DNA from: Candidatus Kuenenia stuttgartensis
GTDB lineage: Bacteria > Planctomycetota > Brocadiia > Brocadiales > Brocadiaceae
Direction of reading: 5' to 3'
Assembly (NCBI RefSeq): GCF_900232105.1
Contig: NZ_LT934425.1
Coordinates: 720,001 to 752,000, forward strand
Length of the DNA stretch: 32,000 bases
Part shown: positions 365 to 25,524 of the stretch, one piece after another
How positions within the stretch are numbered: position 1 is the stretch's first letter
Layout of the letters: each line of letters begins with the position of its first letter
The notes under the pieces: model-generated
Database searches by the model: none
Seen by the model: only the letters and a program-made list of their open reading frames with translations
What the model was told of the DNA's origin: nothing
Made by a program: the position numbers and the translations under genes

Positions 365-405
365 ATCGTAACACTTTAGTTTTTTGAAAAATTCCAATAA
401 TAGCG
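365..405. repeat. Solo copy of the dispersed terminal-repeat motif ATCGTAACACTTTAGTTTTTTGAAAAATTCCAATAATAGCG
   Basis: Same sequence as 16811-16837. It is the reverse complement of 5544-5581 and 17003-29. Only a weak partner lies nearby (TTTTTCAAAAG near 488-498). Confidence 0.6.
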
Positions 406-578
406 CTGTTTTCCGCACAATGTAGGGACGATGGATTATGGATTACGGACTACGGACATCCTTCGTCTTTCGTCTCTAGCTCTTACGTTTTTCAAAAGAC
501 GCAATTTAAATGATTTTTTTGCGATGCTTTTAACACTCCAACAGGCAGCGTAATGTCTGAATATAACCATTCAATGAT

Positions 579-1265: not shown

Positions 1266-1916
1266 ATGTCCACCAATGAAGAAAAATTAACGGATACTAT
1301 TTTAACCAAAAAACAGGCGGATTTTCTAGCCTTTTTAAAAGCATCTCTTCAGGAAAAAGGGTATCCACCTACGGTACGCGAGATTATGCGCGGGATGGAT
1401 CTTTCCAGCACCAATATCGTCAAAAAGTATCTTGACATCCTTGCCCGTAAAGGACACATCAAAAAACAATACAACAGTCCCAGGGCTATTGAAATTATAG
1501 AAGCCCCGGCCGGACATGCAGAAACGAATCTCATCCCCATTGTTGGAAGTGTCAAAGCAGGCGCTCCTCATCCGGCAATAGAAGATATTATGGGATATCT
1601 TGCAGTAGATAAAACAATCTGCCGTACCGGAGACGCATTTTTTTTGCGGGTTGAGGGAGACAGCATGATTAATGCTCATATACAGGAAGGCGACCTCGTA
1701 CTGGTGAGGCCGCAACCGGTTGCCAATAACAGGGAAATTGTGGTTGCCCTCATAAATGGTGAGGCCACGGTCAAAAGATTCTACAAGAAGGGAAATACGC
1801 TGGAATTGCACCCGGAACACCCAATGATGAAACCCATTGTGCTCCAGGGAGAACAAGATGAGGTTCGCATCATTGGCAAGGTTACTGCGGTGGTGCGGTT
1901 GTTAGAGAAGTTATAA
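1266..1916 (+). CDS. lexA: LexA repressor (winged-helix DNA-binding domain plus S24 autopeptidase)
   Basis: 216 aa. N-terminal KGYPPTVREI...SSTNIVKKYLDILARKGHIKK, a VKAGAP cleavage-site region, and RVEGDSMINAHIQEGDLVLVR...NGEATVKRF carrying the Ser/Lys dyad motifs. Confidence 0.9.
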   Translation: MSTNEEKLTDTILTKKQADFLAFLKASLQEKGYPPTVREIMRGMDLSSTNIVKKYLDILARKGHIKKQYNSPRAIEIIEAPAGHAETNLIPIVGSVKAGAPHPAIEDIMGYLAVDKTICRTGDAFFLRVEGDSMINAHIQEGDLVLVRPQPVANNREIVVALINGEATVKRFYKKGNTLELHPEHPMMKPIVLQGEQDEVRIIGKVTAVVRLLEKL

Positions 1917-2066: not shown

Positions 2067-3535
2067 CATTACTTTGTTAAAAATTAAGCGGCGATTTTTT
2101 TCTTAAATCGAGCGGATTTAATTTTAAAATATTCTTGTGAGAGTTTTTCGTTCTTTGATAAAGCGTTTGTTGATGAGAATTCAAGCAGGGAATTGATTGC
2201 TTTTTTGAATTCATTAAAGGTAGAAGGTTTTGTTTCCATGATTTTATCCAGATAAGCGTTTTGTTTTATCCAGTAAACGAATGTCCATGAGATCAGACAA
2301 ATATTCCAATATCGCTCAATCTTGTCAATGTGCCTTACCTGATAATGATCGAAATAAAAAGTATCCTTCAATTCCTTGAAACAGTGTTCAATACCCCAAC
2401 GCAACAGATAGTTTGTGATAACCGTTTTTACAGAGGCGTCGAGTTGATTGGTGATAAGGACATGATATTTTTTATCATCTTCCTTGTTCCATTTTCCCAA
2501 AATTACCACAAACTTCAACGGGACATTGCAACCATTCAGTTTGGCGTCAAACGTGTAGGTTTTATAGGAAACTTCACTTCCATCCGCGGATTTTAAAGTA
2601 ACATACTTGGTTTTGTCGGCATAATGCTTTTTGATGAGGGTCACGAGCTCATCTGGTTTGATTATGCAATATTTTTGTTTTTCCGGATGGTACATGGAGA
2701 TATTTCTGTTTGATTTTATTTCTGAAAAAAAGTGTTTCTTTTTTGCGTGAATATGTTCGAGAAACCGTTGAGAGGCATACCATGTGTCGAAGGCAATAGC
2801 TGAAAAATCAAAGACGTTAGAAGCAGCATCAAACATATCCATTGCTATTTGTATTTTGTCTTTAAATTTGGGATCATTTTTCCCTTCCCCGAACTCATCG
2901 GCAGGAAGGTAGGGAATAACATCCAGGGGAAAATGTTTTGTTTTTGAGACAAATGCCGCGCCAACAACAACATTGCAGGTTTCCGGCCTTTTAAGCGGAC
3001 CGCAATATTGCCATTTGGCTGCCTCTGTATTTTTAGCATAGGGCTTTGGACATCCGGTATCATCTATGGTAAGGATGCTGTCTTTTGTCAATGCCGTGGT
3101 TCTTTGTTTTTGGATAATGTCCATTCTTTTCTGCTTTAATGCGGGTAAATCCCATTTGGATTCAGAAAAGAAGTATTGAAATTTCTGGTAATCCGTATGA
3201 ACGGCTTGCGCCATGGCCTCCAGTGAATTTCTTTTATAGTCTTTAAACATTGCGTAGACAACAAGTAGAAACATTGCAAATTGTTTTTTAGTAAAACACG
3301 ATGCAAAATGTTCAAGAAATTTATTTAATAACGGTATGTTTGTTCTGAAAATACTCAAATCCTTTGCTCCGGTAATTGATTGTGTAAAAAATTTACAAGT
3401 GCAATTAATACCGGAAGTAACGAGCAAAATCAAGAGTAAATATTTATCGCAAAGCATTGCTAAATCATAAGTTGTGGCCGACTCGACTTACGACTTAAAA
3501 ATATTTTTTCAGACGCTTTCTTTAACAAAGTAATG
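2067..3535 (-). mobile_element. Intact IS701/IS4-like insertion sequence (1469 bp)
   Basis: Perfect 15-bp TIR: CATTACTTTGTTAAA at 2067-2081 and TTTAACAAAGTAATG at 3521-3535. It is flanked by direct TTACAT (2061-2066 and 3536-3541) and contains a single transposase ORF. Confidence 0.9.
2084..3457 (-). CDS. DDE transposase, IS701/IS4 type
   Basis: 457 aa. Motifs LTIDDTGCPK...KWQYCGPLKRPETCNVVVGA, IAFDTWYAS and YLLRWGIEHCFKELKD correspond to the D, D and E(YREK-like) regions. Confidence 0.85.
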   Translation of the reverse strand: MLCDKYLLLILLVTSGINCTCKFFTQSITGAKDLSIFRTNIPLLNKFLEHFASCFTKKQFAMFLLVVYAMFKDYKRNSLEAMAQAVHTDYQKFQYFFSESKWDLPALKQKRMDIIQKQRTTALTKDSILTIDDTGCPKPYAKNTEAAKWQYCGPLKRPETCNVVVGAAFVSKTKHFPLDVIPYLPADEFGEGKNDPKFKDKIQIAMDMFDAASNVFDFSAIAFDTWYASQRFLEHIHAKKKHFFSEIKSNRNISMYHPEKQKYCIIKPDELVTLIKKHYADKTKYVTLKSADGSEVSYKTYTFDAKLNGCNVPLKFVVILGKWNKEDDKKYHVLITNQLDASVKTVITNYLLRWGIEHCFKELKDTFYFDHYQVRHIDKIERYWNICLISWTFVYWIKQNAYLDKIMETKPSTFNEFKKAINSLLEFSSTNALSKNEKLSQEYFKIKSARFKKKIAA

Positions 3536-3541
3536 TTACAT

Positions 3542-3593
3542 CTGGAAGGAAAGGGTTGGAAAAACGGTGATACACTACTTTACGGTTACCTAA
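3542..3593 (+). pseudogene. 3' part of the IS-interrupted small ORF (...WKERVGKTVIHYFTVT*)
   Basis: In frame with 1942-2066 after IS removal. TAA at 3591-3593. The reconstructed product is 58 aa. Confidence 0.5.
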
Positions 3594-3817
3594 GGTGCCA
3601 ATTTTTTTCCATCTCCTATAACACTTATACCCTGCTATGGACACTCCATTCCATTTATACCTAAATTGGATAAGAAAGTTAATAACTATGTAATACCTCT
3701 TCCCGAATTCCGAAAGCGTCGAATATAACCTTCTGTTTTTTTGATAATTCGCTCAGGAACGGTTTGTTTTGATTTATTTGTATAATTTTTAATTTTTTGC
3801 GTTCTGCAAATAATTCC

Positions 3818-4217
3818 TTATGTGCGTGATACCGCTTTTCGTGAAGATCATTCTCAAATACGCACAAAAAATGCCCAAGGGCAATGGCTTCTTTGAGGAA
3901 TCTTGTGGTTGGGCTTTTTCATTTTCTCCATGTAACAAATATTGCAAAGATGCTCAGAAATTTTGCGGCAAGACCTTTTCTTGCACTTCAAATGCTTCGC
4001 TGGTAATGTCGAGAACAAAAAAAAACACTTTATTTTTTACTCTCTCTCTCTTTCTTTCATTACTACAGGGATACTCCCGCTCCATTTTGCTTGTTTTGCT
4101 TATTTTTACTCATTTAAATGAGAACCCTATCGTTTTTTACTTTCTTTTCCACTTATTGACGGGAGCTTTTGGCACAAATTCTTGATCCGCGTCTTTCGTA
4201 GGGTGACTTTGACGTTG
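3818..4217 (+). mobile_element. ISAs1-like IS remnant, copy A (3' ~400 bp only; transposase C-terminus frameshifted)
   Basis: Encodes YVRDTAFREDHSQIRTKNA then loses frame (one C missing relative to copy B). By eye about nine in ten bases are identical to the reverse complement of 8843-9236. Homology stops at GACGTTG (4211-4217). Confidence 0.8.
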
Positions 4218-4355
4218 TCGTGCCCCGCAAGAGGTTCTCCTTGACACCAAAAACTTCCCTTGTTAAACTTCTTCCGGGATTTCCGATTTGCAATAGCGTG
4301 CAGTAAGAAAACATATTGTACTCATTAATAAACTTATTCGTATATTAAAATACCA

Positions 4356-4805
4356 ATGGGGAAAATTTTAGCTGTCTGCGTAAGCGAAAGAAAAGGTATC
4401 CAGAAACGAAATATAGGCAAATGCATGGCAATTAAACATTATGGCCTAGAGGGAGATGCCCATGCAGGAAAATGGCACCGCCAGGTGAGTCTGCTTGCAA
4501 CGGAAAGCGCCGACGTGATGCGTAGTAAAGGCTTAGAGATAAAAGACGGCGATTTTGGAGAAAATATTGTCACCAGTGGCATAGAACTAAAATCGCTTCC
4601 TGTTGGAACTACGCTGAAAATCGGAAATGATATTATCATAAAGATAACCCAAATCGGCAAATTATGCCATGACCGCTGCGCCATTTATTACAAGGCAGGC
4701 GACTGTATCATGCCGCGAGAAGGGATTTTTGCAGAAATCCTTAGCAGCGGAATGATTAAAGCCGGAGATGAAATTTTAATACATGAATATCCCTCTGGGG
4801 TGTAA
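4356..4805 (+). CDS. MOSC domain protein
   Basis: 149 aa. GLEGDAHAG...RQVSLL...GDFGENIVTSG...L.VG..L.IG motifs. Lies immediately upstream of mog/moaB. Confidence 0.75.
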   Translation: MGKILAVCVSERKGIQKRNIGKCMAIKHYGLEGDAHAGKWHRQVSLLATESADVMRSKGLEIKDGDFGENIVTSGIELKSLPVGTTLKIGNDIIIKITQIGKLCHDRCAIYYKAGDCIMPREGIFAEILSSGMIKAGDEILIHEYPSGV

Positions 4806-4808
4806 ACT

Positions 4809-5315
4809 ATGATTCGCACCGCAATAGTAACATTGAGCGATAAAGGGTCAAAAGGGGAGCGCGAAGACAAAAGCGGAGAGATTATCCGTACGATGCTCCA
4901 ACAAATCAATACATCCATTGTCGCATACGAAATAATCCCCGATGAAAAAGACCTCATTATCAAAAAACTTCGTGAATTCTCCAAACTATCCGATCTTATC
5001 ATCACAACCGGAGGTACCGGAGTTGGCCCTCGCGATATCACGCCTGAGGCAACAAGGGCAGTGATAGAAAAAGAATTGCCTGGCTTCGGAGAAGCAATGC
5101 GTATGGAAGGGATGAAGCACACACCAAGGGCAATGGGTTCCAGGGCGGTGGCAGGGATATATCGGCAAACCCTTATCATAAACCTTCCTGGAAGCCCAAA
5201 AGGCGTTGCGGAAAACCTCTCCGTCGTTCTGCCGGTTATTCCTCATACCATAAACCTTATCAAAGGCACGGTGACAGATTGCGCCAAAGACCGGGAGCAA
5301 CACCCTCACAGGTAG
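4809..5315 (+). CDS. mog: Molybdenum cofactor biosynthesis protein MogA/MoaB family (molybdopterin adenylyltransferase-like)
   Basis: 168 aa. TLSDKGSKGEREDKSG...ITTGGTGVGPRDITPEAT...LPGFGEAMR...INLPGSPKG. Confidence 0.85.
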   Translation: MIRTAIVTLSDKGSKGEREDKSGEIIRTMLQQINTSIVAYEIIPDEKDLIIKKLREFSKLSDLIITTGGTGVGPRDITPEATRAVIEKELPGFGEAMRMEGMKHTPRAMGSRAVAGIYRQTLIINLPGSPKGVAENLSVVLPVIPHTINLIKGTVTDCAKDREQHPHR

Positions 5316-5433
5316 CCACCCGAAAATGCAGACAAATGAATGTCTCTCTTCTTCAAAACTGCATCAAAAACAATGACATCGCCTCCCAACAAACAGCACA
5401 GACGCACCATCAAGTCGTGATCTCCATAAAAGT

Positions 5434-5581
5434 ATCAACTTAGTTTTTTGAAAAAGTATGGGCGAAGCATTTGCCCGTTTGGGTATGAATTTATCTATGA
5501 CAATTTATAGCAAATGCTTCGCCCATACACATGCGGCAAACATCGCTATTATTGGAATTTTTTAAAAAACTAAAATGTTAC
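5434..5581. repeat. MITE-like element: outer TIRs of the TTAGTTTTTTGAAAAA family enclosing a perfect 19-bp inner inverted repeat
   Basis: Left ATCAACTTAGTTTTTTGAAAAA (5434-5455). Right CGCTATTATTGGAATTTTTTAAAAAACTAAAATGTTAC (5544-5581). Inner GTATGGGCGAAGCATTTGC (5456-5474) pairs with GCAAATGCTTCGCCCATAC (5510-5528). Confidence 0.65.
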
Positions 5582-5625
5582 CAAACGATAAATTTTGGAT
5601 TATAGGTCAAAATTTGTTATAAAAC

Positions 5626-5663
5626 AAAAAAGCCATAAGAGTTTGGTTTCTTATGGCTTTTTC
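5626..5663. terminator. Bidirectional intrinsic terminator between mog (+) and tRNA-Glu (-)
   Basis: 11-bp stem AAGCCATAAGA (5630-5640) pairing with TCTTATGGCTT (5649-5659). An A-run lies on the left and a T-run on the right. Confidence 0.7.
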
Positions 5664-5673
5664 AAATCATATA

Positions 5674-5748
5674 TGACCCCATGGGGATTTGAACCCCAGT
5701 TCACAGATCGAAAATCTGTTGTCCTAGACCAGACTAGACGATGGGGCC
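5674..5748 (-). tRNA. tRNA-Glu (anticodon UUC)
   Basis: Reverse complement GGCCCCATCGTCTAGTCTGGTCTAGGACAACAGATTTTCGATCTGTGAACTGGGGTTCAAATCCCCATGGGGTCA folds as a cloverleaf. Anticodon loop is TTTTCGA. CCA is not encoded. Confidence 0.9.
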
Positions 5749-5767
5749 ATTTATGCACAATAGTAAA

Positions 5768-5840
5768 TGAGGGCAGATGGACTCGAACCATCGACACCCG
5801 CCTTAAAAGGGCGGTGCTCTACCGACTGAGCTATGCCCCC
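5768..5840 (-). tRNA. tRNA-Lys (anticodon UUU)
   Basis: Reverse complement GGGGGCATAGCTCAGTCGGTAGAGCACCGCCCTTTTAAGGCGGGTGTCGATGGTTCGAGTCCATCTGCCCTCA. Anticodon stem CCGCC/GGCGG, loop CTTTTAA. Confidence 0.9.
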
Positions 5841-5926
5841 ATTATACAGAAATGTATGAATATTGCACGCAGAAAATAAAATTACAAAGGGAAAAAACAT
5901 CGATAATATACGTTTCAACGGTACGT

Positions 5927-6487
5927 TTATACCTTGAGTATTTCTTCAGTCTTTCTTTTGATTAAATCATTTACCTTAGTTTCAAAGTCTTTGATAATTT
6001 TTTGAATTTCATCCTTGGCGCGCTTAACATCGTCTTCTGTTAAAATATTTTCTTTCTTTTCTTTATCCGCTTGTTTATTTGAATCCTGCCGTATATTACG
6101 CAAAGAAACCTTTGTTGATTCCCCAAAATCTTTTACGGTTACGGAAAGTTTTTTTCTCCTCTCCTCATTAAGCGGAGGAATAACGATGCGCAGGGTTTTA
6201 GCTTCAACAGAAGGGTTCAGGCCGATGTCTGATTGAATGATTGCCTTTTCGATATTAGATACTATAGTAGTATCGTAAGGTTTTATCAAGATTGACTGTG
6301 CATCAGGTGTGGAAATCACTGCAAGTTGCTTTAAGGGTGAAGGGTTCCCGTAGTATTCAACCCGTATATTTTCGACCAGACCAGTGCTTGCCCTACCGGT
6401 TCTTATTCCCTTCAAATCATCTTGCAAATGAGCGATAACCTTTTCCATTTTTGCCTTTGTTTCTTTGCAAATCGAATCTATTGACAT
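5927..6487 (-). CDS. frr: Ribosome recycling factor
   Basis: 186 aa. LKGIRTGRAS..LVENIRVEYYG...LNEERRKKL; last gene of the rpsB-tsf-pyrH-frr block. Confidence 0.92.
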   Translation of the reverse strand: MSIDSICKETKAKMEKVIAHLQDDLKGIRTGRASTGLVENIRVEYYGNPSPLKQLAVISTPDAQSILIKPYDTTIVSNIEKAIIQSDIGLNPSVEAKTLRIVIPPLNEERRKKLSVTVKDFGESTKVSLRNIRQDSNKQADKEKKENILTEDDVKRAKDEIQKIIKDFETKVNDLIKRKTEEILKV

Positions 6488-6492
6488 ATCGG

Positions 6493-7236
6493 TTAATTTC
6501 CTATAAAAGTACCAACAGATTTCCCCAAAACAGCCTTTTCAATATTTCCTTTTTTATTCATGTTTAATACGATTATTGGCAATTTGTTTTCCATGCTCAA
6601 GGATACCGCAGTCATATCCATTACGCCTAATTGTCGGTTTAATACTTCGGCATAGGTCAGTTTGCTTAACAGCTTTGCGGATGGATTATTAGCTGGATCA
6701 TCTGTATACACGCCGTCAACTCTTGTGGCTTTAAGCATCACGTTGGCATTAATTTCTATCGCGCGTAAAGCAGCTGCAGTATCGGTTGTGAAATAGGGGT
6801 TTCCCGTTCCCCCCGCAAAAATAACAATATTTCTTTCTTCAAGATACCGTAAACAATTTCGTAAAATAAAAGGTTCTGTGATATTCTTAATTTCAATTGC
6901 GCTTATTACATGCGTTTTAATGTTGCACTCTTCCAGGGTGTCCTGCAAAAGCAATGCATTTAAGATGGTAGCAATCATCCCCGCCTGATCCGCTACAATT
7001 CTGGATTTTCCCGAAAGGCCAAATTTAGCGCCGCGCAACACGTTACCGCCGCCAACGACAAGCGCCGTTTCAGCACCGAGTGATAAAATCTTTTGTATCG
7101 TTTTGGCAAATGTTGCAAATTTTTCAGTATCGATGCCTTTTCCGTTTTCACCGCCAAAGCCTTCGCCGCTAACTTTCAATAAGATACGTTTATACTTTAT
7201 TTTCTTATTTTTCGGCATAATGATTGTGTGCGGCAA
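6493..7236 (-). CDS. pyrH: UMP kinase
   Basis: 247 aa. YKRILLKVSGE...VVGGGN..RG...GNPYFTTDTAAALRA.E...ATRVDGVYTDDP. Confidence 0.92.
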   Translation of the reverse strand: MPHTIIMPKNKKIKYKRILLKVSGEGFGGENGKGIDTEKFATFAKTIQKILSLGAETALVVGGGNVLRGAKFGLSGKSRIVADQAGMIATILNALLLQDTLEECNIKTHVISAIEIKNITEPFILRNCLRYLEERNIVIFAGGTGNPYFTTDTAAALRAIEINANVMLKATRVDGVYTDDPANNPSAKLLSKLTYAEVLNRQLGVMDMTAVSLSMENKLPIIVLNMNKKGNIEKAVLGKSVGTFIGN

Positions 7237-7249
7237 TCTAAACTGCTAG

Positions 7250-7837
7250 CTATTTCCCCCCTACTTCAAGCCTGGCAAAGCGATTAATTTTAATATTTTC
7301 ACCTATTTTTGCGATAATTGCAATTAATAAATCCTGAATAGTTTGTGAGTCATCTTTTATAAACGGTTGTTCCAGCAGGCATTTTTCCTTATAAAAATTT
7401 TCCAGCTTTCCTTTAACGATTTTTTCAGAAATATCAGATGGTTTTCCTTTGGTATCCTCTATAAAACCCCTTTTTTGTGTTTCCACAATTTCCGAAGAAA
7501 TATCTTCCCTTTTTATTGCGATTGGATTGGTTGCGGCAATTTGCATGCAAATATCTTTTAAAAACTGCTGAAAGACCTCGTTTCTTGCCACGAAATCTGT
7601 TTCACAATTCACCTCAACCATTACGCCTATTTTCCCGTTAGTATGAATGTAAGAACCTATTCTGCCTTCGGCAGTTGTTCTTTGTTCTTTCCTGGAAGCT
7701 TTTGCAAAACCTTTCTTTTTTATAATTTCCAGTGCTTTATCATAATCGTCATTTACTTCATCCAAGGCGTTTTTGCACTCTAATATTCCCGCACCTGTTT
7801 GTTCACGCAATTTCATAACACTCGCTTTATCTGCCAT
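7250..7837 (-). CDS. tsf: Translation elongation factor Ts (short form)
   Basis: 195 aa. VMKLREQTGAGILECKNAL...EGRIGSYIH.NGKIGVMVEVNCETDFVARN. Confidence 0.92.
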   Translation of the reverse strand: MADKASVMKLREQTGAGILECKNALDEVNDDYDKALEIIKKKGFAKASRKEQRTTAEGRIGSYIHTNGKIGVMVEVNCETDFVARNEVFQQFLKDICMQIAATNPIAIKREDISSEIVETQKRGFIEDTKGKPSDISEKIVKGKLENFYKEKCLLEQPFIKDDSQTIQDLLIAIIAKIGENIKINRFARLEVGGK

Positions 7838-7986
7838 CGGTATCCTCCAAAATAATATAGCTACGAACTGTCCTTGTTGCGAAGCCGGTAATCTTGTTAT
7901 TACAAATAATCAAGCGGAACATCTTGAGATGTGTATCTTTAAAGGCAGTTGTTAGATTGGCAATCCAAGGATATACAAACTCTGAA

Positions 7987-8018
7987 TTTTACGAAAAATG
8001 GAAGGATTTTCGTAAAAA
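7987..8018 (-). terminator. Candidate AT-rich hairpin (attenuator) between rpsB and tsf
   Basis: TTTACGAAAA and TTTTCGTAAA form a 10-bp stem around an 8-nt loop just downstream of the rpsB stop. The stem is weak (AT only). Confidence 0.3.
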
Positions 8019-8023
8019 CCTGA

Positions 8024-8728
8024 TTAATCTTTTGTCAGCGTAACAAGTTGTTCTTTTCCGGCAAGAACGGCGTCTGCTGTCTTAGATAAAAAGAGATTAA
8101 TCGACCGTATCGCATCGTCATTCCCAGGTACACAAATATCTACCATATCAGGGTCACAATCGGTATCCGCCAGGCAAACAGTTGGTATTCCCAATTTTTT
8201 TGCCTCTTTTATAGCGTTGTGTTCGTATCTTGGGTCCACTACCACAAGTGCCCCTGGAAGTTTGGTCATATTGCGGATGCCTTCCAGATTGGTAAGTATT
8301 TTCTTGTATTCTCTGTTGAGTGAGGAAATCATCTTTTTACTGTATTGGTTGATTTCGCCTGTATCTTTCATTTTTTCCAATTCTTCAAGACGTTCTAAAC
8401 GACTCCTGATAGTATCAAAATTTGTCAACGCACCACCAAGCCATCTTTCGCTGACATAATGCATACCACACCGCTTTGCTTCTCGCGCGGTAATATCCTG
8501 TGCCTGCCACTTCGTGCCTACAAACAATATATCTTTCTTTGTTTGCACCAGGTTCGTTACAAATCTGCAAGCAGTGATAAGACCCTTCACCGTTTCCCGT
8601 AAATTAATGATATGAATCAGATTTTGCTTACCAAAGATAAAAGGCTTCATCTTTGGGTTCCACCTGCTTGTTCTATGTCCGAAATGAAACCCTGCTTCGA
8701 CTAATTCTTGAATATTCACAATAGACAA
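8024..8728 (-). CDS. rpsB: 30S ribosomal protein S2
   Basis: 234 aa. LVEAGFHFGHRTSRWNPKMKPFIFG..N.IHIINL..T...FVGTK...RWLGG.LTNF. Confidence 0.93.
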   Translation of the reverse strand: MSIVNIQELVEAGFHFGHRTSRWNPKMKPFIFGKQNLIHIINLRETVKGLITACRFVTNLVQTKKDILFVGTKWQAQDITAREAKRCGMHYVSERWLGGALTNFDTIRSRLERLEELEKMKDTGEINQYSKKMISSLNREYKKILTNLEGIRNMTKLPGALVVVDPRYEHNAIKEAKKLGIPTVCLADTDCDPDMVDICVPGNDDAIRSINLFLSKTADAVLAGKEQLVTLTKD

Positions 8729-8791
8729 ATAACGCCCTTTCCAGATTGAGATAATAAAAGAAAATAAAGGAATTTTTCAGAAAAGAATGTG

Positions 8792-8819
8792 ATTATAGCC
8801 ATTATAGGCAAGTTGTCAA
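8792..8819 (-). promoter_or_regulatory. Sigma70-type promoter of the rpsB operon (TTGACA, 16-bp spacer, TATAAT on minus strand)
   Basis: Reverse complement of 8814-8819 is TTGACA and of 8792-8797 is TATAAT. Lies about 60 nt upstream of the rpsB ATG and about 24 bp from the IS end at 8843. Confidence 0.55.
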
Positions 8820-8842
8820 GTATATTTATTGTAACACCTCAG

Positions 8843-9537
8843 CAACGTCAAAGTCACCCTACGAAAGATGTGGATCAAGAATTTGTACCAAAAGCTCCCG
8901 TCAATAAGTGGAGAAGAAAGTTAAAAACGATAGGGTTCTCATGTAAATCGGCAAGAATGAGCAAAACAAGCAAAATGGAGCGGGAGTATCCCTGTAGTAA
9001 TGAAAAAGAGAGAGTAAAAAATAAAGTGCTTTTTTTGTTCTCTACATTACTAGCGAAGCATTTGAAGTGCAAGAAAAGGTCTTGCCGCAAAATTTCTGAG
9101 CGTCTTTGCAATATTTGTTACCTGGAGAAAATGAAAAAGCCCAATCACAAGATTCTTCAAAGAAGCCATTGCCCTTGGGGCATTTTTCGTGCGTATTTGA
9201 GAATGGTCTTCACGGAAAGCGGTATCACGCACATAATGAAGTCCATTTTCTATTGACCAGTGTCCGCGGGAAAACTTAAGAATGGTTTTGGGACTTGCTT
9301 TTTGTTGTGTCAGGCTGGTAATACCGTAAACAATTTCCCCGGTCTTTTTGCTTGTCTTGATTTTTGTAAATATTCTATGAATGCAAAATACCTGTCGTTT
9401 CGTTTTTGTATTGTAACGGCAGGAGAGACGTTTGAGCATATTTTGCGGACAACGCTTTGCCCACTCTGCAATAGCAGCAAAGCTCCAAGCATTGCATATC
9501 TTTGTATATTATGTGCTTATGGAAAACTTTGACAGCG
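8843..9537 (-). mobile_element. ISAs1-like IS, copy B (internally deleted derivative, ~0.7 kb)
   Basis: Ends share the core GTCAAAGT in inverted orientation (8847-8854 and 9526-9533). The coding frame reads ...SFAAIAEWAKRCPQNMLKRL then jumps to the C-terminal ISAs1 signature, so the central transposase portion is missing. Confidence 0.75.
9050..9439 (-). pseudogene. Truncated ISAs1-family transposase (C-terminal 129 aa)
   Basis: FSRGHWSIENGLHYVRDTAFREDHSQIRTKNAPRAMASLKNLVIGL is the classical ISAs1 C-terminal signature. Far too short to be an active enzyme. Confidence 0.8.
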
Positions 9538-9828
9538 TCGTGTCTTGCGGGGCATAATCAAAGACGAAGGACCAATGACTAATACACTACTGCTCCCAAC
9601 TATCACAATTTATTGGTAAGTTACGACGACGCTAACGTTACTCCGCAACTGCCTGTAGCGGTGTATAAAATCCTTGTTTTTTGTAACTGTTGCAATTAGA
9701 ATTGCTTCTTTAATCCATTCTATTCAAAAGATTACGATTGTTTGGTCAAAATTTTCATTACAGAGAAATTTTACCGTGGAAAATAATTTTAGTAAAATCT
9801 GTTTTCAACCAGAGAAAGGCAAGATCGC

Positions 9829-11175
9829 ATGTCGGGTGAACATATTGATTTGGCAGTAATTAACCGGGCAAAAGACGATAAGGTAAAGCTTGTTCAGTTA
9901 CAATTTACCGATATTAACGGTAGTGTAAAGGCAGTTACCATACCAATTGAAAAGTTCCCGGAATCTTTGGAGAAAGGGTTGTGGTTTGACGGTTCATCAA
10001 TTGAAGGTTTTACAAGGATTTGTGAAAGTGATATGTTTTTAAAACCCGATGCAGGTACATATGCGTTGCTTCCCTGGGAGACGGTTGCTGTGACTGCGAG
10101 GCTGTTCTGTGATGTTTATATGCCTGATGGTTCGCCTTTTGAGGGAGATCCCCGTTACATATTAAAGAGGGCAATTAAAAATGCCCGTGATATGAATTTT
10201 GAATATAACGTGGGGCCTGAACTGGAATTTTTCCTGTTTAAACCGAAGAATGACGGGGCCGTTGCACCCACCCCACATGATGTAGGAAGTTATTTTGATT
10301 TCTCTCCCAGGGACCTTGCGGGGAATGTGAGGGCAGATATTATTTTTACTCTTGAAAAAATGGGTATCAATGTGGAGATGAGCCACCACGAAGTAGCTCC
10401 GGGCCAACATGAGATTGATTTTAAATATGCAGAAGCATTACGGACGGCTGAGAATGCCCTGACCTTCAAGCAGGTGGTAAAATCCATTGCACATAAGCAT
10501 GATCTCTATGCTACCTTTATGCCGAAACCGATTTTTGGGATATGTGGCAGCGGGATGCATTGTCATCAGAGCCTTTTTGATATAAGGACAAACACCAATA
10601 TTTTTTTTGATGAAAATGACACGTATAAATTAAGCAGGAACGCAAAACATTTTATTGCCGGGCAACTGGAGCATGTAAGGGCGATGAGCGCAATACTTTC
10701 TCCGACCGTGAATTCCTATAAGAGATTGGTTCCGGGATATGAAGCGCCGGTGTATATATGCTGGGGGCAAAAAAACAGATCTGCCCTCATCAGGGTGCCG
10801 AGGTATTCTCCCGGCAGGGAGCAGGCAACAAGGGCTGAACTGAGGTGTCCTGACCCAAGCAACAATCCCTATCTTGCTTTGGCAGTAATGCTGGAAGCAG
10901 GACTGGATGGTATAAAAAGAAAGCTTGAATTGCCAAAGGCAACAGAAGAAAATGTGTATGAATTTAATAAGGATGAACTGGCATACCGTAATATTGCAAC
11001 ATTGCCTGGTTCTTTGGGGGAGGCGTTGCATGAATTAAAACAGAGTGCGTTGATGAAGAGGGCGCTGGGTTCACATACTTATCAAATATATTTGCATTCA
11101 AAATTTTCCGAATGGGATGAATACAGGATTCAGGTAACGGAGTGGGAGCAGAAAAAATATCTTGAAACCACATAG
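9829..11175 (+). CDS. glnA: Glutamine synthetase, type I
   Basis: 448 aa. FTDINGSVKAVTIP...WFDGSSIEGF...GPELEFFLF...MSHHEVAPGQHEIDF...MPKP..G..GSGMHCHQSL...NSYKRLVPGYEAP. Confidence 0.93.
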   Translation: MSGEHIDLAVINRAKDDKVKLVQLQFTDINGSVKAVTIPIEKFPESLEKGLWFDGSSIEGFTRICESDMFLKPDAGTYALLPWETVAVTARLFCDVYMPDGSPFEGDPRYILKRAIKNARDMNFEYNVGPELEFFLFKPKNDGAVAPTPHDVGSYFDFSPRDLAGNVRADIIFTLEKMGINVEMSHHEVAPGQHEIDFKYAEALRTAENALTFKQVVKSIAHKHDLYATFMPKPIFGICGSGMHCHQSLFDIRTNTNIFFDENDTYKLSRNAKHFIAGQLEHVRAMSAILSPTVNSYKRLVPGYEAPVYICWGQKNRSALIRVPRYSPGREQATRAELRCPDPSNNPYLALAVMLEAGLDGIKRKLELPKATEENVYEFNKDELAYRNIATLPGSLGEALHELKQSALMKRALGSHTYQIYLHSKFSEWDEYRIQVTEWEQKKYLETT

Positions 11176-11430
11176 TTCTCCCTGACCACGGGTATCTAAA
11201 ATCAATTAATTGCGAGTGGATAAAAACCATACCATGAATGAGATCGGTTACAATATTGCCTTTGCAGAAAGTATGGGTTCCGGCGGGCATATCGGCTTTG
11301 TAAAATATTTTCTAAAAAGAGGGCAGGCTTTCGGCATGTGAAATTGTTGGCTATGAGCGAAGGACTCAGAAACGAATTGTATTAATCCGACAAGTTTCTT
11401 GATGTTATCATTTCGGCAAACCGGGAAGCC

Positions 11431-11961
11431 TTGTCGTTAAAAATGGATTTGTGGCGCAGGATTTATAAGTACAGGCCCGTACAATGCATGGATTATCCTG
11501 ATTGTGCCGGAGCCGCTTCCGGGCAGGAAATAACAGGACTATGCATTTATAACGAATATAATACTTCAGGCGCTTATCAGCAGTTGGTCTATAAGCGTGA
11601 ATGGAAGGCATTTCTCGCAATCAGGGATGATTTGACCGCTTTGCGCGGAATATTCTCAGGCAATGAAGTTTCAGCCACAAGGGAAATATTGCTAAATGCA
11701 AAGGGAGTTTGTCTTGCGGAGATATCCGTAGAATCGGAGAAACAGGATTTTATCCTGATTCCTCTACCGAAACGAACAGAAAATATTTTATATTTATCCG
11801 AAAAACACCAGCCTATTACTACGATAAAAGACGCTTACAGGAGATGGGATGAGAAGATAAAAGGGAATCTTCAGTACCATTATGGAACGGAGTGGAATAA
11901 AAAATTGGAAGAGGCTATTAGAATGGAGGGAAAAGATGTTAGTAAAGGAAATAATGAGTAA
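11431..11961 (+). CDS. Hypothetical protein (start uncertain; ATG at 11443 possible)
   Basis: 176-aa ORF with no motif I recognise. The 3' end overlaps the CBS gene start. Supported only by length and position. Confidence 0.35.
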   Translation: MSLKMDLWRRIYKYRPVQCMDYPDCAGAASGQEITGLCIYNEYNTSGAYQQLVYKREWKAFLAIRDDLTALRGIFSGNEVSATREILLNAKGVCLAEISVESEKQDFILIPLPKRTENILYLSEKHQPITTIKDAYRRWDEKIKGNLQYHYGTEWNKKLEEAIRMEGKDVSKGNNE

Positions 11962-12352
11962 ACAGTTGGTCACCCTTAATGCCGATTCAAAGCTTGGCTT
12001 TGCCGAAGATATTATGTATTTGGGGAGAATCAGGCATTTGCCGGTAGTAAATGGAAAAGAAATAGTGGGTATTTTGACGCAAAGAGATCTTTACAAGGCG
12101 TCGCTGACTTCCATTGTTACGAATTGGGAAGAAAATAAGACTTTTCTTGATTCTGTTAAAGTTGCGGAGGTAATGACAAAAGACGTCATTACCATTTCTC
12201 CGAACACTTCAATTGAAGATGCTGCACAGATTATGATTGATAAAAAGGTTGGCTGTTTGCCGGTGGTTGAAGATAAAAATACTCTTCTTGGCTTGATAAC
12301 AGAAACGGATGTATTGCAGTATTTTGTTCATGAATGCAGAAAAAACAGATAA
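11936..12352 (+). CDS. CBS domain pair protein
   Basis: I prefer the ATG at 11936 (MLVKEIMSKQLVTL...), preceded by GGAGGG, over the track start at 11882. Two CBS motifs are present (IMS..LVT..., GRIRHLPVV; VMTKDVITI..., VGCLPVVE). Confidence 0.8.
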   Translation: MLVKEIMSKQLVTLNADSKLGFAEDIMYLGRIRHLPVVNGKEIVGILTQRDLYKASLTSIVTNWEENKTFLDSVKVAEVMTKDVITISPNTSIEDAAQIMIDKKVGCLPVVEDKNTLLGLITETDVLQYFVHECRKNR

Positions 12353-12422
12353 CCGTTTTGTTTTTTAAAGAGTTCATGCAAATTAACCTGTCTTTTTTGC
12401 AGATCCGGAAAATATTGCCAGT

Positions 12423-13253
12423 ATGATTTCAAGAAGAACATTTATAAAAGGAGCCGGCGGATGTGTACTGGGTATGGTATCCGTAGGGGGTTATAGCCAT
12501 TTTTTAGAGCCCCGGTGGGTAGAAATAAACAACGTTACCATAAAGCTTGAAGATTTACCGACTAAATTTGAAGGTTTAAGAATAGCGCAACTTTCAGATA
12601 TCCATCATTGTGAATATGTATCAAAGGATTTTATACGGAATTGCGTCCACAAGACTAATGCGTTATGTCCTGATGTAATAGTCCTGACTGGAGATTATGT
12701 TTTTGGCAGCAACGATTATCTTTCTTCGGTGGCAAAAGAATTATCTGAATTGAAGGCAAAAGAGGGAGTTTTCGCTATCCTTGGAAATCATGATGATAAG
12801 GGAAGCACCTATGATGAATTGCAGAGAAATGGCATTCGCTTACTCATAAATGAGCATATTGTTTTATATAGGGACAACGCGTATATATTTATTGCGGGCA
12901 TAGATGATCTCTGGAAGGGCGAAATAGATATTAAAAAAACCCTGAAAGGAATGGATGAGAATCCAAAGATTTTACTGGCACATAATCCGGACGTGATTGA
13001 AACAATCCAGTATGAGGATGTCGATTTTGTTATATCCGGACATACTCACGGGGGGCAAGTGTGTTTCCCCTTTTATGGACCTCCTATCGTGTACTCAAAA
13101 TTTGGGGCTCGTTATGCTGCGGGTCTCTTTCGTGAAAGAAATACGTTAATGTATGTAAACAGAGGCATAGGCGTATCTAATTTGCCGGTACGGTTTTTTG
13201 CAAGGCCTGAAATCACGCTGTTCACCATAAGAAATGGTTTGCAACAGGTGTAG
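12423..13253 (+). CDS. Calcineurin-like metallophosphoesterase with Tat-type signal (YaeI-like)
   Basis: 276 aa. MISRRTFIKGAGG; QLSDIHH, LTGDY, GNHD, GHTHGG motifs. Confidence 0.85.
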   Translation: MISRRTFIKGAGGCVLGMVSVGGYSHFLEPRWVEINNVTIKLEDLPTKFEGLRIAQLSDIHHCEYVSKDFIRNCVHKTNALCPDVIVLTGDYVFGSNDYLSSVAKELSELKAKEGVFAILGNHDDKGSTYDELQRNGIRLLINEHIVLYRDNAYIFIAGIDDLWKGEIDIKKTLKGMDENPKILLAHNPDVIETIQYEDVDFVISGHTHGGQVCFPFYGPPIVYSKFGARYAAGLFRERNTLMYVNRGIGVSNLPVRFFARPEITLFTIRNGLQQV

Positions 13254-13269
13254 TTCTTTCTTCTTCCTT

Positions 13270-13306
13270 TAGTACTTTATCAGTAATTTCTTTGCATTTT
13301 TTGTCA
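13270..13306. repeat. Dispersed ~36-nt motif, copy 1 (TAGTACTTTATCAGTAATTTCTTTGCATTTTTTGTCA)
   Basis: Aligns with 21413-21448 and 31859-31894. Confidence 0.6.
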
Positions 13307-13398
13307 TTAGAATTTGTTTCGTATTTCGAATTTCGTGCTTATTTGTTGCTTGGTTCTGGCTATGCCAGCTTAGGTATTATTTTTAAAATGTGCAATTA

Positions 13399-13662
13399 TT
13401 ATTTGCCCCTGTATTTATATAAAAAGCGCAAAGAGAAAATAGTACTCACAAAAGAAAGAGTAAATCCATTGGCAAGCACAATGATTATATCTCTTAAATG
13501 TAACCCGTAAACTAACCACATACTGCAGCCGAGTAGTAAAAGGGATAACATTATCGGGGAAACATCATTTAATTCCTTTGTCCTTATCCCACGAATGATT
13601 TGCGGGATAAAACCTACTGTAGTACACAATGCCGCAATTGTTCCTATTATAGACCATCCCAT
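13399..13662 (-). CDS. SemiSWEET / PQ-loop family transporter
   Basis: 87 aa with three predicted TM helices. FIPQIIRGIRTKE contains the PQ motif. Confidence 0.8.
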   Translation of the reverse strand: MGWSIIGTIAALCTTVGFIPQIIRGIRTKELNDVSPIMLSLLLLGCSMWLVYGLHLRDIIIVLANGFTLSFVSTIFSLRFLYKYRGK

Positions 13663-13829
13663 ATATATTTCCCCGGTTATTTTGTTATTATCAAAAATAT
13701 AGTATTAATTGTTTAAAGCATACCAAAAAGAATTGCAAAAAGTAAGATCAAACGCTATATTTAACGACTTAACGGGCAGTAAGGAAAGGGGGAAAATAAT
13801 CAAGGGAAAAGGGAAAGATAAAAGATAAA

Positions 13830-14864
13830 ATGGGCGGAATAAGAAACATGATAAAAACATTACACCCGGCTTACTTTGTGTTTATCATGTCAACAGGCAT
13901 TATATCGATAGCGTCAAATATGTTGGGAATAACGCCGGTAGCACAGGGGTTGTTTTATTTAAACATTGTGGCATATGCGGTTATATTGACGATCCAGATA
14001 CTGAGGATAATAATGTACTGGAGTTTGCTGTACTCAGACATATCAAATCCGAAACTTGGACTGGTTTATTTTGCGATAGTAGCAGGAACCAACGTGCTTG
14101 GGGCGCAGTTTGTAACCGTAGTTAACTGCCAGTGCGTTGCCAAGTCATTGTGGTTTTTTGGAATATTTCTGTGGGTGGTGCTCACCTTATCGACATTCAC
14201 CTTGTTATTTTTAAAAAACGAACAGCAGATAGAGCGCACAATACACGGGGGGTGGTTAGTATCGGTGGTAGGCACACAGTCGGTTGCGGTGCTTGGTGCG
14301 TTATTATCGCCGTGTTTTGCGGAGACCTCAAACTTTATCCTGTTTTCCTCGATGGTGTGGTGGATGATAGGATGTTTCTTATACGTGGTGATTATAACGT
14401 TAATAACTTATAGGTTAATATTTTTCAAGATAGCACCGGAGGTGTTGGTGCCTCCGTACTGGATCAACACGGGAGCTGTAGCGATAACAACACTTGCAGG
14501 GGCGACAATAAGCTTAAGCATCCCGAAGATAGAAGATCCGTTTTTAGATATTGATGGATTTATCAAGGGATTTTCTGTGTTCTTCTGGTCTTTTGGAACG
14601 TGGTGGATTCCGCTGCTGGTAATAATCGGGATATGGAAATACGTGTATCACATGACGCCGTATAAGTATAATCCGCTGTACTGGGGTCTGGCGTTTCCGT
14701 TGGGAACGTATACGGCAGGTACACTAAAGCTGGCAGAGGCGCTGGGGATAGGATATATATCAAACATATCAAAGGTATTTATCTACATAGCGTATATTGC
14801 CTGGCTGATAGTGTTCGTGACTATGATTCGTTCTTTTCTTAAACCAGCTCTGGCAAAGCAATAA
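13830..14864 (+). CDS. TDT family (TehA/Mae1/SLAC1-like) anion/dicarboxylate transporter
   Basis: 344 aa, about 10 hydrophobic helices. N-terminal PAYFVFIMSTGIISIAS is typical of the C4-dicarboxylate/tellurite-resistance transporter family. Confidence 0.6.
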   Translation: MGGIRNMIKTLHPAYFVFIMSTGIISIASNMLGITPVAQGLFYLNIVAYAVILTIQILRIIMYWSLLYSDISNPKLGLVYFAIVAGTNVLGAQFVTVVNCQCVAKSLWFFGIFLWVVLTLSTFTLLFLKNEQQIERTIHGGWLVSVVGTQSVAVLGALLSPCFAETSNFILFSSMVWWMIGCFLYVVIITLITYRLIFFKIAPEVLVPPYWINTGAVAITTLAGATISLSIPKIEDPFLDIDGFIKGFSVFFWSFGTWWIPLLVIIGIWKYVYHMTPYKYNPLYWGLAFPLGTYTAGTLKLAEALGIGYISNISKVFIYIAYIAWLIVFVTMIRSFLKPALAKQ

Positions 14865-14914
14865 CGCAATGTCAGTTTCCAGGAATCTTTTAGCGAACCA
14901 TACGATACTTTTTT

Positions 14915-14940
14915 TGTAACAATTTAGTTTTTTGGAAAAG
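14915..14940. repeat. Solo copy of the GTAACA.TTTAGTTTTTTG.AAAA terminal-repeat motif
   Basis: TGTAACAATTTAGTTTTTTGGAAAAG, followed by the hairpin GAAACGCTA-GTA-TAGCGTTTC (14943-14963). No partner repeat was found. Confidence 0.5.
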
Positions 14941-14986
14941 TAGAAACGCTAGTATAGCGTTTCATTAAAATATCTATATTGATACC

Positions 14987-15066
14987 GTCATTGCGAGCGA
15001 CAGCGAAGCAATCTTAAGTCTTTTGGGAACAAGAGATTGCTTCGTCGCTACACTCCTCGCAATGAC
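14987..15066. repeat. Long imperfect hairpin GTCATTGCGAGCGACAGCGAAGCAATC ... GATTGCTTCGTCGCTACACTCCTCGCAATGAC
   Basis: Inverted repeat read directly from the sequence. The loop contains TTTTGGGAAC. Confidence 0.6.
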
Positions 15067-15104
15067 ATTTTTTTACGTACACATTTTAACGAAACGATGT
15101 ACTA

Positions 15105-15128
15105 GTTCCCAAGCTCCGGCTTGGGAAC
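15105..15128. repeat. Perfect hairpin GTTCCCAAGC-tccg-GCTTGGGAAC
   Basis: 10-bp stem. Shares the GTTCCCAA/TTGGGAAC core with the arms of the 21033-21350 element. Confidence 0.6.
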
Positions 15129-15313
15129 TATACTGTAAGAGTTCACAAATAGGGATTTCTAAAATTAGATTTAACTTTTGTTGACATAAATAGTTATAGT
15201 ATTTTTGAAATCACACTTTGTGAACCCCTTGAGTATAGCAGTTTTTCCCATTTCATAGCACTAAAGTATTATAAATTTCATCTCTTTCATCTCTAAGATA
15301 AAATCCTTACGTT

Positions 15314-16303
15314 ATGTTGAATGGCTTAACAGAAAAACAGCCCCTGTCTGACATAGATTATGCAAAAAAAGTATTATTACTCGAGTCAGAAGCAATAAAA
15401 AATCAGATTCATCGTATTGACCATCATTTTCAAAAAGCCGTAGACGTCATATTTACGTGTTCCGGCAGGGTCGCAGTTACCGGGGTTGGAAAGGCTGGCA
15501 TTATTGGACAGAAGATTTCGGCCACTTTGGCGAGCACTGGCACGCCTTCCTATTGGATACATTCTTCCGAAGCCAGGCATGGCGACCTTGGTAAAATTGT
15601 TGCCAGCGACATTGTACTTGCGTTGTCAAACAGCGGCGAAACAGAGGTGGTGTTGCTTTTGCCATTTTTGAAACAAATGGGAACAAAGATAATCTCCGTT
15701 ACGGGCAATAATAAATCTTCCCTGGCGCTGCATAGCGATGTCGTTCTTGATATTGGAAATGTTGAAGAAGCCTGCCCTTTAGGCATTGCGCCTTCTTCGA
15801 GCACAACGGCGATGCTTGCCATTGGAGATGCCATTGCGTTAACGATATTTAAAAAGAGGAATCTTAGCAAAGAAGAGTATGCCTTCTATCATCCTGGCGG
15901 AGAACTTGGAAGAAAATTACTGCCGGTTGAAGTTGTTATGCGCAAAGGCAGGGAAAATCCTGTAGCGGATGAAGATATGCCTCTGCTGGATGTCCTTGGC
16001 ATTATGACGGAAACAAAAGGTAACCCGGGAGCAGTGAGTATTGTTGATAAAAATAACCGGTTGACGGGGTTTTTTACGGACGGGGATTTGAGAAGGCTTT
16101 TAAGGGAAGGAACGTCATTTTTATGCAAGACAATAAAAGAGGTTATGACCCCCTTTCCCAAGGTAATCAATAATCGTTGTTTAGTTGAAGAGGCATATAA
16201 AATACTGAGAGAAAACAAAATTGACCAAATTCCTGTGGTTAACGATTTCCATACACCTGTCGGCATATTTGATGTGCAGGATTTATTGGAGGTTAGATTT
16301 TAA
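15314..16303 (+). CDS. kdsD: Arabinose-5-phosphate isomerase (KpsF/GutQ family; SIS domain plus CBS pair)
   Basis: 329 aa. GRVAVTGVGKAGIIGQKISATLASTG.PS...SNSGET.E....GDA.A, then a tandem CBS region. Confidence 0.9.
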   Translation: MLNGLTEKQPLSDIDYAKKVLLLESEAIKNQIHRIDHHFQKAVDVIFTCSGRVAVTGVGKAGIIGQKISATLASTGTPSYWIHSSEARHGDLGKIVASDIVLALSNSGETEVVLLLPFLKQMGTKIISVTGNNKSSLALHSDVVLDIGNVEEACPLGIAPSSSTTAMLAIGDAIALTIFKKRNLSKEEYAFYHPGGELGRKLLPVEVVMRKGRENPVADEDMPLLDVLGIMTETKGNPGAVSIVDKNNRLTGFFTDGDLRRLLREGTSFLCKTIKEVMTPFPKVINNRCLVEEAYKILRENKIDQIPVVNDFHTPVGIFDVQDLLEVRF

Positions 16304-16308
16304 ATACG

Positions 16309-17029: not shown

Positions 17030-17138
17030 AATCAGATATAAATATTGAAAATTTCTTTTTTCATACCAGCCCTGCATAATTAATGTTTGTAACAAATAAA
17101 GCACTTCAGAAGTGAGACTTTTTGTTTTCCTGTAAATA

Positions 17139-25522: not shown

Positions 25523-25524
25523 GG

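Follow-up and report, generated by a model that had tools for sequence, protein, structure and literature searches.

How did a block of core genes come to lie between two inverted copies of one insertion sequence (IS), and does its orientation record a past event? The question is raised by a 32,000-nucleotide stretch of Candidatus Kuenenia stuttgartensis (hereafter K. stuttgartiensis; NCBI RefSeq assembly GCF_900232105.1, contig NZ_LT934425.1, positions 720,001 to 752,000), which we call the window and whose coordinates are used unless another contig is named. Two decayed ISAs1-family copies, A on the plus strand and B on the minus strand, enclose 4.6 kb of this DNA. An earlier note, written from the sequence of the window, proposed that the enclosed block had been flipped and gave its content as MOSC-mog-tRNAs-frr-pyrH-tsf-rpsB, a content that our gene calls (Pfam for proteins, ARAGORN for tRNAs) reproduce. 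The gene order is lexA(+), an IS701-family IS, relic A, MOSC(+) and mog(+), tRNA-Glu(-) and tRNA-Lys(-), frr/pyrH/tsf/rpsB(-), relic B, and glnA(+). We consider it very probable that this order arose through two independent insertions followed by homologous recombination, and that it represents a fixed fossil rather than a switch.

A target duplication split between two inverted relics

The sequences abutting the two copies provide the central observation. The 15-mers TCGTGCCCCGCAAGA (4218-4232) and TCGTGTCTTGCGGGG (9538-9552) occur exactly as the earlier note had quoted them, and their last ten bases, 4223-4232 and 9543-9552, are exact reverse complements, as it had also stated. Read in the orientation of the IS, the 5' flank of copy B and the 3' flank of copy A are both CCCCGCAAGA, directly at the termini. 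Each 10-mer occurs once in the 32-kb window, and a 10/10 match at fixed positions has a chance of ~3.2e-7 given the base composition of the window. Because the termini were fixed independently by a complete reference copy on another contig (L012), the 10-mers stand at predetermined positions. The proposal that the duplication of one insertion was divided over two inverted copies is therefore borne out by a full match abutting independently fixed ends: the split 10-mer is the mark of a single insertion, the two ends of which now lie in two oppositely oriented copies.

The reference element was reached through the closest homologues of the transposase fragment in copy B (open reading frame (ORF) 9050-9439, minus strand). 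It occupies L012 2547-4607, inside an interrupted aldo/keto-reductase gene, and L012 lies in the assembly GCA_900232175.1, which is also the source of a contig identical to the window. Both ends of this 2,061-bp element are complete, reading CACGGCGCTGTCAAAG...CTTTGACGTTGCCGTG (CACGGC...GCCGTG), and it is flanked on both sides by a perfect 10-bp target duplication, TGAATGGCCT. Its terminal inverted repeats are imperfect and ~16-17 bp long (CACGGCGCTGTCAAAGT versus CACGGCAACGTCAAAGT, 14/17 positions matching), and the termini overall follow CACGRC...GYCGTG. The GYCGTG end and 10-bp duplication that the earlier note expected of other copies are thus both found at L012, and the split repeat has the same length, 10 bp, as the duplication at this one clean independent copy. 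A metagenome scan with the 3'-end pattern of the IS returned two unrelated, GC-rich chance matches and no further IS copies. The same IS also occurs at L011 964-4607 (CP049055.1, ~1.94 Mb), where it carries an IS630-type insertion and has no target duplication (flanks ...atcttcctac / tagggggggt...); that copy may mark another IS-mediated rearrangement.

The element resembles the ISAs1 family. Its first ORF encodes a transposase that scores 139.1 bits against NCBIfam NF033564 (ISAs1; cutoff 70), with the domain pair DDE_Tnp_1_assoc and DDE_Tnp_1, and both the 10-bp direct repeat and the inverted-repeat length match what is reported as typical for the family (10 bp, and 14-22 bp with a consensus start of CAGGG; PMC11946415). 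It differs in its termini, which are CACGG/CACGA rather than CAGGG, a start that is perhaps dispensable for membership. Typical ISAs1 members are ~1.2-1.5 kb long, whereas the L012 element spans 2,061 bp, has an extra N-terminal DruA-like domain (PF14236, 77 bits), and has a broken frame (442-aa and 132-aa ORFs). PF14236 is named after a Druantia anti-phage defence protein.

Comparison with L012 also defines the relics. The sharing of ~395 bp in inverted orientation, claimed by the earlier note, is confirmed by alignment: 3814-4217 matches the reverse complement of 8843-9240 with 92.6% identity over 405 columns as one gapped alignment, or with 91-94% identity as three blocks parted by gaps. 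The repeat it described is thus real, but the copy limits move from 3818-4217 to 3814-4222 for A and from 8843-9537 to 8838-9542 for B. One consequence is that TCGTG, taken in that note as sequence outside the copies, is placed by L012 within the IS terminus. Copy A, 89.8% identical to L012 4206-4607, ends at its true 3' terminus, ...GACGTTGTCGTG, at 4222; no intact transposase ORF is present in it, and no IS sequence was found in 3536-3813 by comparison with the reference. Copy B begins with CACGAC at 9542 and, read in IS orientation, closes with CTGAG, a mutated form of the CCGTG that is intact at the orthologous ends in contigs L017 and L048. The ORF at 9050-9439 is the C-terminus of an ISAs1 transposase (NF033564, E=3.9e-17, 62.4 bits), below the cutoff of 70 because only a C-terminal fragment is left.

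The uninverted relative Bin_40 and the ancestral order

A PyrH scan covering one genome per species recovered only two Kuenenia relatives, Kuenenia sp. Bin_40 (L017), with ~96% nucleotide identity to the window, and K. hertensis. Bin_40 has the order [ISAs1 relic] rpsB+ tsf+ pyrH+ frr+ ... mog- MOSC- glnA+. L017 8331-11633 corresponds to window 8907->5603 and L017 11730-12906 to window 5399->4221, after which the sequence continues directly with window 9543->13306, the two alignments overlapping by 12 bp. The joint is an empty site, GGTGTCAAGGAGAACC-TCTTGCGGTG-CATAATCAAGG, in which the MOSC flank, a single target with one substitution, and the glnA flank follow one another (GAGAACC-TCTTGCGGTG-CATAATC in L017). 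The rpsB-tsf-pyrH-frr genes point the same way as glnA in Bin_40, opposite to the window. The synteny comparison suggested in the earlier note therefore comes out as anticipated with respect to glnA: a relative without the glnA-side copy has the block in the opposite orientation.

More distant genomes agree. The order MtN3 / metallophosphatase / CBS / orf / glnA <> MOSC / mog is kept in K. hertensis (L039), Brocadia (L043, CP091279.1) and Jettenia (L044), and L041/L042 keep MtN3 / metallophosphatase / CBS / orf <> MOSC / mog with no glnA call there. A second K. hertensis contig, L018, has only rpsB-frr and the tRNAs in common with the window, and the junctions fall outside its overlap. In three ENA metagenome contigs (L051-L053), glnA adjoins MOSC without an IS. 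Since glnA and MOSC are adjacent in Bin_40 and the outgroups, the order of the window, with 4.6 kb including rpsB between them, is derived; on the sequences compared, one inversion of 4223-8837 would restore the ancestral order.

The contigs L051-L053 are themselves uneven, the glnA side being 96-97% identical to the window and the MOSC side only 90%, and an intergenic stretch of 97 bp (window 9553-9649) is missing from them. Such unequal divergence of the two sides may point to inter-lineage recombination.

A second inversion on the Bin_40 branch

Bin_40 complicates the comparison in one respect. The block is reversed relative to glnA, as described, but relative to lexA it has the same orientation in Bin_40 as in the window, so that the orientation check of the earlier note succeeds against one landmark and not against the other. 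With a = 1-2067, b = 3537-3750, S = the flipped block, c = 9543-13306, d = 13370-16837, and a prime for reversal, the window reads a b A S B c d and Bin_40, reverse-complemented, reads a b c' S IS2' d, where IS2 is the relic next to rpsB. The common ancestor was probably a b IS2 S' c d. From it, insertion of a second IS (IS-1) and inversion of S would give the K. stuttgartiensis order, and inversion of the whole of [IS2 S' c] would give that of Bin_40. The shared orientation relative to lexA is thus due to a second, larger inversion in Bin_40 itself, not to the lack of a flip in the window.

This second inversion covers ~9 kb ([IS-2, rpsB...MOSC, glnA...metallophosphatase]). In the window the c/d joint (13306/13370) is uninterrupted, GCCAGCT-TA-GGTATT. 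In Bin_40 the sequence on either side of this TA adjoins an element resembling a miniature inverted-repeat transposable element (MITE), with the terminal repeat TAACCCAACTTCGACA (L017 7947-8165 and 16716-16958). An IS of 2.1 kb with the same terminal repeats, TAACCCAACTTCGACA, is found in contig L014. Because the c/d joint is common to K. hertensis, Jettenia and L041/L042 and its site is uninterrupted, the larger inversion is derived in Bin_40. A simple model of recombination or transposition of the MITE-like element does not account for it, as the two copies stand in direct rather than inverted orientation.

These data bear on the reading that no inversion occurred here at all, the order of the window being ancestral, the 10-mer match coincidental, and Bin_40 the rearranged genome. 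Bin_40 does have at least one rearrangement of its own, with lexA downstream of the glnA block and MITE-like elements at both junctions. However, the chance of the 10-mer match is ~3e-7, the empty site in Bin_40 is precise, and the glnA/MOSC adjacency is common to three more distant genera or species. The metallophosphatase/MtN3 joint of the window, likewise common to K. hertensis, Jettenia and L041/L042, puts the extra inversion on the Bin_40 branch. We give this reading almost no credence.

A different thought is that rpsB-tsf-pyrH-frr was re-oriented twice, independently, relative to the lexA/MtN3 backbone in two sister lineages (in K. stuttgartiensis through the ISAs1 copies, in Bin_40 through the ~9-kb inversion), that the block came to the same orientation in both, and that this reflects selection on orientation or a recombination hotspot rather than coincidence. 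We regard it as unlikely. If it were true, selection could concern the orientation of a highly expressed operon, e.g. relative to replication; alternatively, a persistent recombination hotspot could sit at the relic upstream of rpsB.

Mechanism and proposed history

The relic in Bin_40 (L017 8166-8400) dates the older of the two copies. It is an ISAs1 sequence with an intact 3' end (GTTGCCGTG) that abuts the same rpsB-upstream flank as the 3' end of copy B. As the same rpsB-side junction exists in the uninverted genome, the IS at that junction (IS-2) predates both the lineage split and the inversion, and the 3' terminus of copy B at 8838 is the old IS-2/rpsB junction. IS-1 is missing from Bin_40 and was thus inserted later; to it belong the 3' terminus of copy A and the 5' terminus of copy B.

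A four-step history would account for these observations. The ancestor of K. stuttgartiensis and Bin_40 would have carried a 5'-truncated relic IS-2 (+), followed by rpsB+ tsf+ pyrH+ frr+ tRNA-Lys+ tRNA-Glu+ mog- MOSC- and then glnA+ ... metallophosphatase+ MtN3-. In the K. stuttgartiensis lineage, a second copy, IS-1, would have entered the divergent intergenic region between MOSC and glnA in the orientation opposite to IS-2, duplicating the 10-bp target TCTTGCGGGG. Homologous recombination within the ~400-440 bp common to IS-1 and the inverted relic would then have flipped 4.6 kb. Its products would be two hybrids: copy A, with the 3' end of IS-1 and the copy of the duplication that now faces MOSC, and copy B, with the 5' end of IS-1 and the other copy of the duplication on the glnA side, joined to the 3' end of IS-2 at rpsB. 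Later decay would have truncated A at its 5' end and removed internal parts of B, leaving both unable to transpose; the order of the decay events is conjectural.

The earlier note had left the mechanism between homologous recombination and intramolecular replicative transposition. In the latter, a lone IS between MOSC and glnA would attack a target upstream of rpsB, making the inverted copy and the inversion in one step. It would give the same split-duplication geometry, the original duplication lying on the outer side of one copy and on the inner side of its partner, and is a known route for IS26-type inversions (PMC10501869, PMC4471558). Yet in Bin_40 the rpsB-side relic stands at exactly this junction without the glnA-side copy and without the inversion, so that the second copy was not made by the event. 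The 3' junction of copy B is the pre-existing IS-2/rpsB junction, so that a fresh transposition would need to have landed precisely on the old terminus. Replicative transposition also predicts that A has a 5' end with a new duplication, and none is present. We judge this route highly unlikely and favor homologous recombination; the exchange is most simply ascribed to the recombination machinery of the host rather than to the transposase. The identical runs shared by A and B, of 50, 46 and 26 bp, make such recombination feasible.

Several points weigh against the four-step history. Bin_40 is a short-read metagenome-assembled genome and differs as well by the second inversion, the junctions of which are not fully understood. 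When its relic is taken as the orthologue of IS-2 to map the crossover, only two informative sites fit the hybrid pattern (at 3897, A equals the Bin_40 relic; at 3931, B does). The other differences between A and B are mostly private, and in the middle part of A private changes are more numerous than the younger copy should have. The 5' part of A has been deleted, and with it the left flank of IS-2, where the reciprocal half of the target duplication of IS-2 would lie. For efficient recombination of the RecA type, 92.6% identity between A and B is low, though the copies were perhaps more alike at the time. An intermediate with IS-1 inserted and the block unflipped was not found among the genomes examined. 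Reciprocal hybrids with a crossover near 3897-3931 would fit the two sites, and gene conversion between A and B may have blurred the signal.

Distribution and timing

The arrangement of the window occurs in 11 K. stuttgartiensis-type contigs at 99.6-100% identity. One (OCTL01000098.1, assembly GCA_900232175.1) is 100% identical over the first 12.5 kb of the window, the extent compared, and the ten further contigs, including the 4.33-Mb chromosome CP049055.1, are 99.6-99.9% identical. Proteins on these records bear the name Candidatus Kuenenia stuttgartiensis, and their KsCSTR locus tags indicate strain CSTR1. All spanning contigs examined agree on the arrangement. Inverted repeats are a classic source of mis-oriented segments, and an assembler misled by them might have placed the block the wrong way round. 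Against such an artefact, the same order is found in independent assemblies from different projects, CP049055.1 among them, and the genome of strain CSTR1 that this accession represents is described as sequenced and circularized (PMC7709395). The repeats are short (~400 bp) and 7% different, hence easily assembled through, and the split duplication is separate, biological evidence of inversion. The chance of an artefact is negligible.

The block could also be a currently active invertible element of which the assemblies give only the majority isomer. Inverted repeats of ~400 bp could in principle go on recombining, and three short-read contigs (L048-L050) end inside both repeats, so that their orientation is unreadable. 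Every repeat-spanning contig (11 loci), on the other hand, has the same orientation, no recombinase gene was detected by Pfam among the scanned genes of the segment and its flanks, and the repeats are 7% diverged with decay continuing. An active switch is very unlikely.

As to timing, the L048 lineage, ~2% diverged, already has the 3' end of IS-1 with its duplication beside MOSC, and IS-1 is missing from Bin_40, ~4% diverged. Both events, insertion and inversion, thus fall between these two splits, and from these comparisons the inversion would predate the radiation of K. stuttgartiensis strains. The earlier note had argued from a divergence of ~10% and from decay that the event was probably not recent. 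The divergence is there, at ~7-10%, but it is no clock for the event, since A and B descend from two separate insertions and were never identical sisters.

Decay of copy B has gone different ways in different strains. In IS coordinates the window retains 1-51/857-961/1506-2061, and contig L006 (8975-9720), from a metagenome-assembled genome, retains 1-51/857-1103/1628-2057; L047 has an additional 33-bp deletion. As the window form cannot have arisen from the L006 form, nor the reverse, copy B was longer in their common ancestor, and part of its decay is very recent and independent between strains.

Promoters, strand skew and comparison with known inversions

A promoter-like site moved with the flipped genes. 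The earlier note had placed an rpsB promoter at 8792-8819, 24 bp from the IS end. A site with a 12/12 consensus match, a match of sequence only, is indeed there and within the flipped DNA, so that it stayed with rpsB, but it lies 18 nt, not 24, inside the IS-2 terminus. On the other side, IS-1 may have replaced the -35 region of glnA: a TTGACA in its 5' terminus stands 18 nt upstream of a native CATAAT, an 11/12 consensus match toward glnA that is suggestive of a hybrid promoter. IS-1 would also have split the divergent control region of MOSC and glnA, and the rpsB-tsf-pyrH-frr operon is now probably transcribed opposite to nearly all its neighbours.

Strand composition is compatible with a recent flip of MOSC and mog, for these two genes only. 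Together they have a third-codon-position G/C skew of ~-0.2 on the coding strand (58 G3 vs 87 C3), and nearly all other plus-strand genes have a positive one. Pooled over all genes, third-position skew differs between the segment and its flanks (Fisher p = 7e-9), but this is mostly what gene orientation alone gives, as two flanking minus-strand genes are also G-rich on their coding strand.

IS-associated inversions have been reported in Streptococcus pyogenes (PMC11602124). K. stuttgartiensis has >200 transposase genes, and its strains MBR1 and CSTR1 differ by 11 reversals with transposases at the block edges (PMC7709395). The present case resembles such recombination-driven inversions in having inverted copies of one IS at the breakpoints, a split duplication, and an uninverted relative with an empty site. 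It differs in being small (4.6 kb), older than the strain radiation, present in all K. stuttgartiensis assemblies examined, and dependent on a partner that was already a truncated relic. With IS26-type replicative inversion (PMC10501869, PMC4471558) it shares the final geometry and split duplications; unlike there, the second copy pre-exists in an uninverted relative and was not made by the event. Unlike a programmed invertible switch, it has no recombinase gene among the scanned genes and a single orientation in all repeat-spanning assemblies.

The 4.6-kb inversion is unmentioned in the literature searched on K. stuttgartiensis genome structure, presumably because it is common to the sequenced strains and so invisible in strain comparisons. 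It is a new instance of a textbook type of event, an IS-mediated inversion seen through exchanged duplications, and the mechanism is not new. As a base-resolved case, it illustrates how even truncated IS relics reshape the genome of a key anammox bacterium, and that split-duplication reasoning from raw sequence alone can prove correct. The inverted arrangement may serve as a structural marker separating K. stuttgartiensis-type assemblies from Bin_40, and it matters for inferring operons, promoters and replication-strand bias in K. stuttgartiensis.

Features of the locus

Table 1. Coordinates of the inverted segment, the IS relics and neighbouring features in the window.
Feature	Position	Strand	Remarks
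lexA	1266-1916	+	
IS701-family IS	2068-3535		transposase 2084-3457 on -
Copy A, 3'-terminal 409 bp of ISAs1-family IS	3814-4222	+	IS coordinates 1660-2061; 5'-truncated
IS-1 target duplication, copy 1	4223-4232	+	CCCCGCAAGA; inner side, facing MOSC
Inverted unique segment S	4233-8837		MOSC, mog, short repeat, tRNA-Glu, tRNA-Lys, frr, pyrH, tsf, rpsB, rpsB promoter region
MOSC-domain protein gene	4356-4805	+	Pfam PF03473; ancestral neighbour of glnA
mog-like molybdopterin-binding (MoCF_biosynth) gene	4809-5315	+	Pfam PF00994
tRNA-Glu(UUC)	5673-5749	-	ARAGORN
tRNA-Lys(UUU)	5767-5841	-	ARAGORN
frr	5927-6487	-	Pfam RRF
pyrH	6493-7236	-	Pfam AA_kinase
tsf	7250-7837	-	Pfam EF_TS
rpsB	8024-8728	-	Pfam Ribosomal_S2
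rpsB promoter-like site	8819->8792	-	TTGACA, 16 nt, TATAAT; 12/12 consensus match, sequence match only
Native flank of IS-2	8828-8837		final 10 bp of segment S
Copy B, internally deleted ISAs1-family copy	8838-9542	-	IS coordinates 1-51 / 857-961 / 1506-2061
Hybrid promoter-like site toward glnA	9529-9558	+	TTGACA in IS-1 5' terminus, 18 nt, native CATAAT; 11/12 consensus
IS-1 target duplication, copy 2	9543-9552	+	TCTTGCGGGG; outer side, facing glnA; reverse complement of 4223-4232
glnA (glutamine synthetase)	9829-11175	+	Pfam Gln-synt_N + Gln-synt_C; ancestral divergent neighbour of MOSC

An exact-protein look-up with the 234-aa rpsB ORF gave no match, probably because another start codon is called elsewhere. 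A family of short dispersed repeats with the core GTAACACTTTAGTTTTTTGAAAAA occurs in both orientations in the window (366-437, 5426-5585, 16797-16837 and 16993-17039). The copy at 5426-5585 lies between mog and tRNA-Glu, at a seam beyond which the synteny with K. hertensis, Brocadia and Jettenia is lost; the flipped block is thus itself a lineage-specific fusion of two gene groups.

The IS701-family IS is an insertion polymorphism that both contig L009 and Bin_40 lack. Upstream of lexA stands an inverted copy of ~55 bp from its end (1166-1220 vs 2061-2115), so that lexA is bracketed by inverted IS701 ends. Farther along the window, a 67-nt inverted repeat lies at 21088-21314 (88% complementary, 93-nt spacer), and the region 25000-27000 is GC-rich (0.48-0.53 vs ~0.40 elsewhere) with strong positive GC skew.

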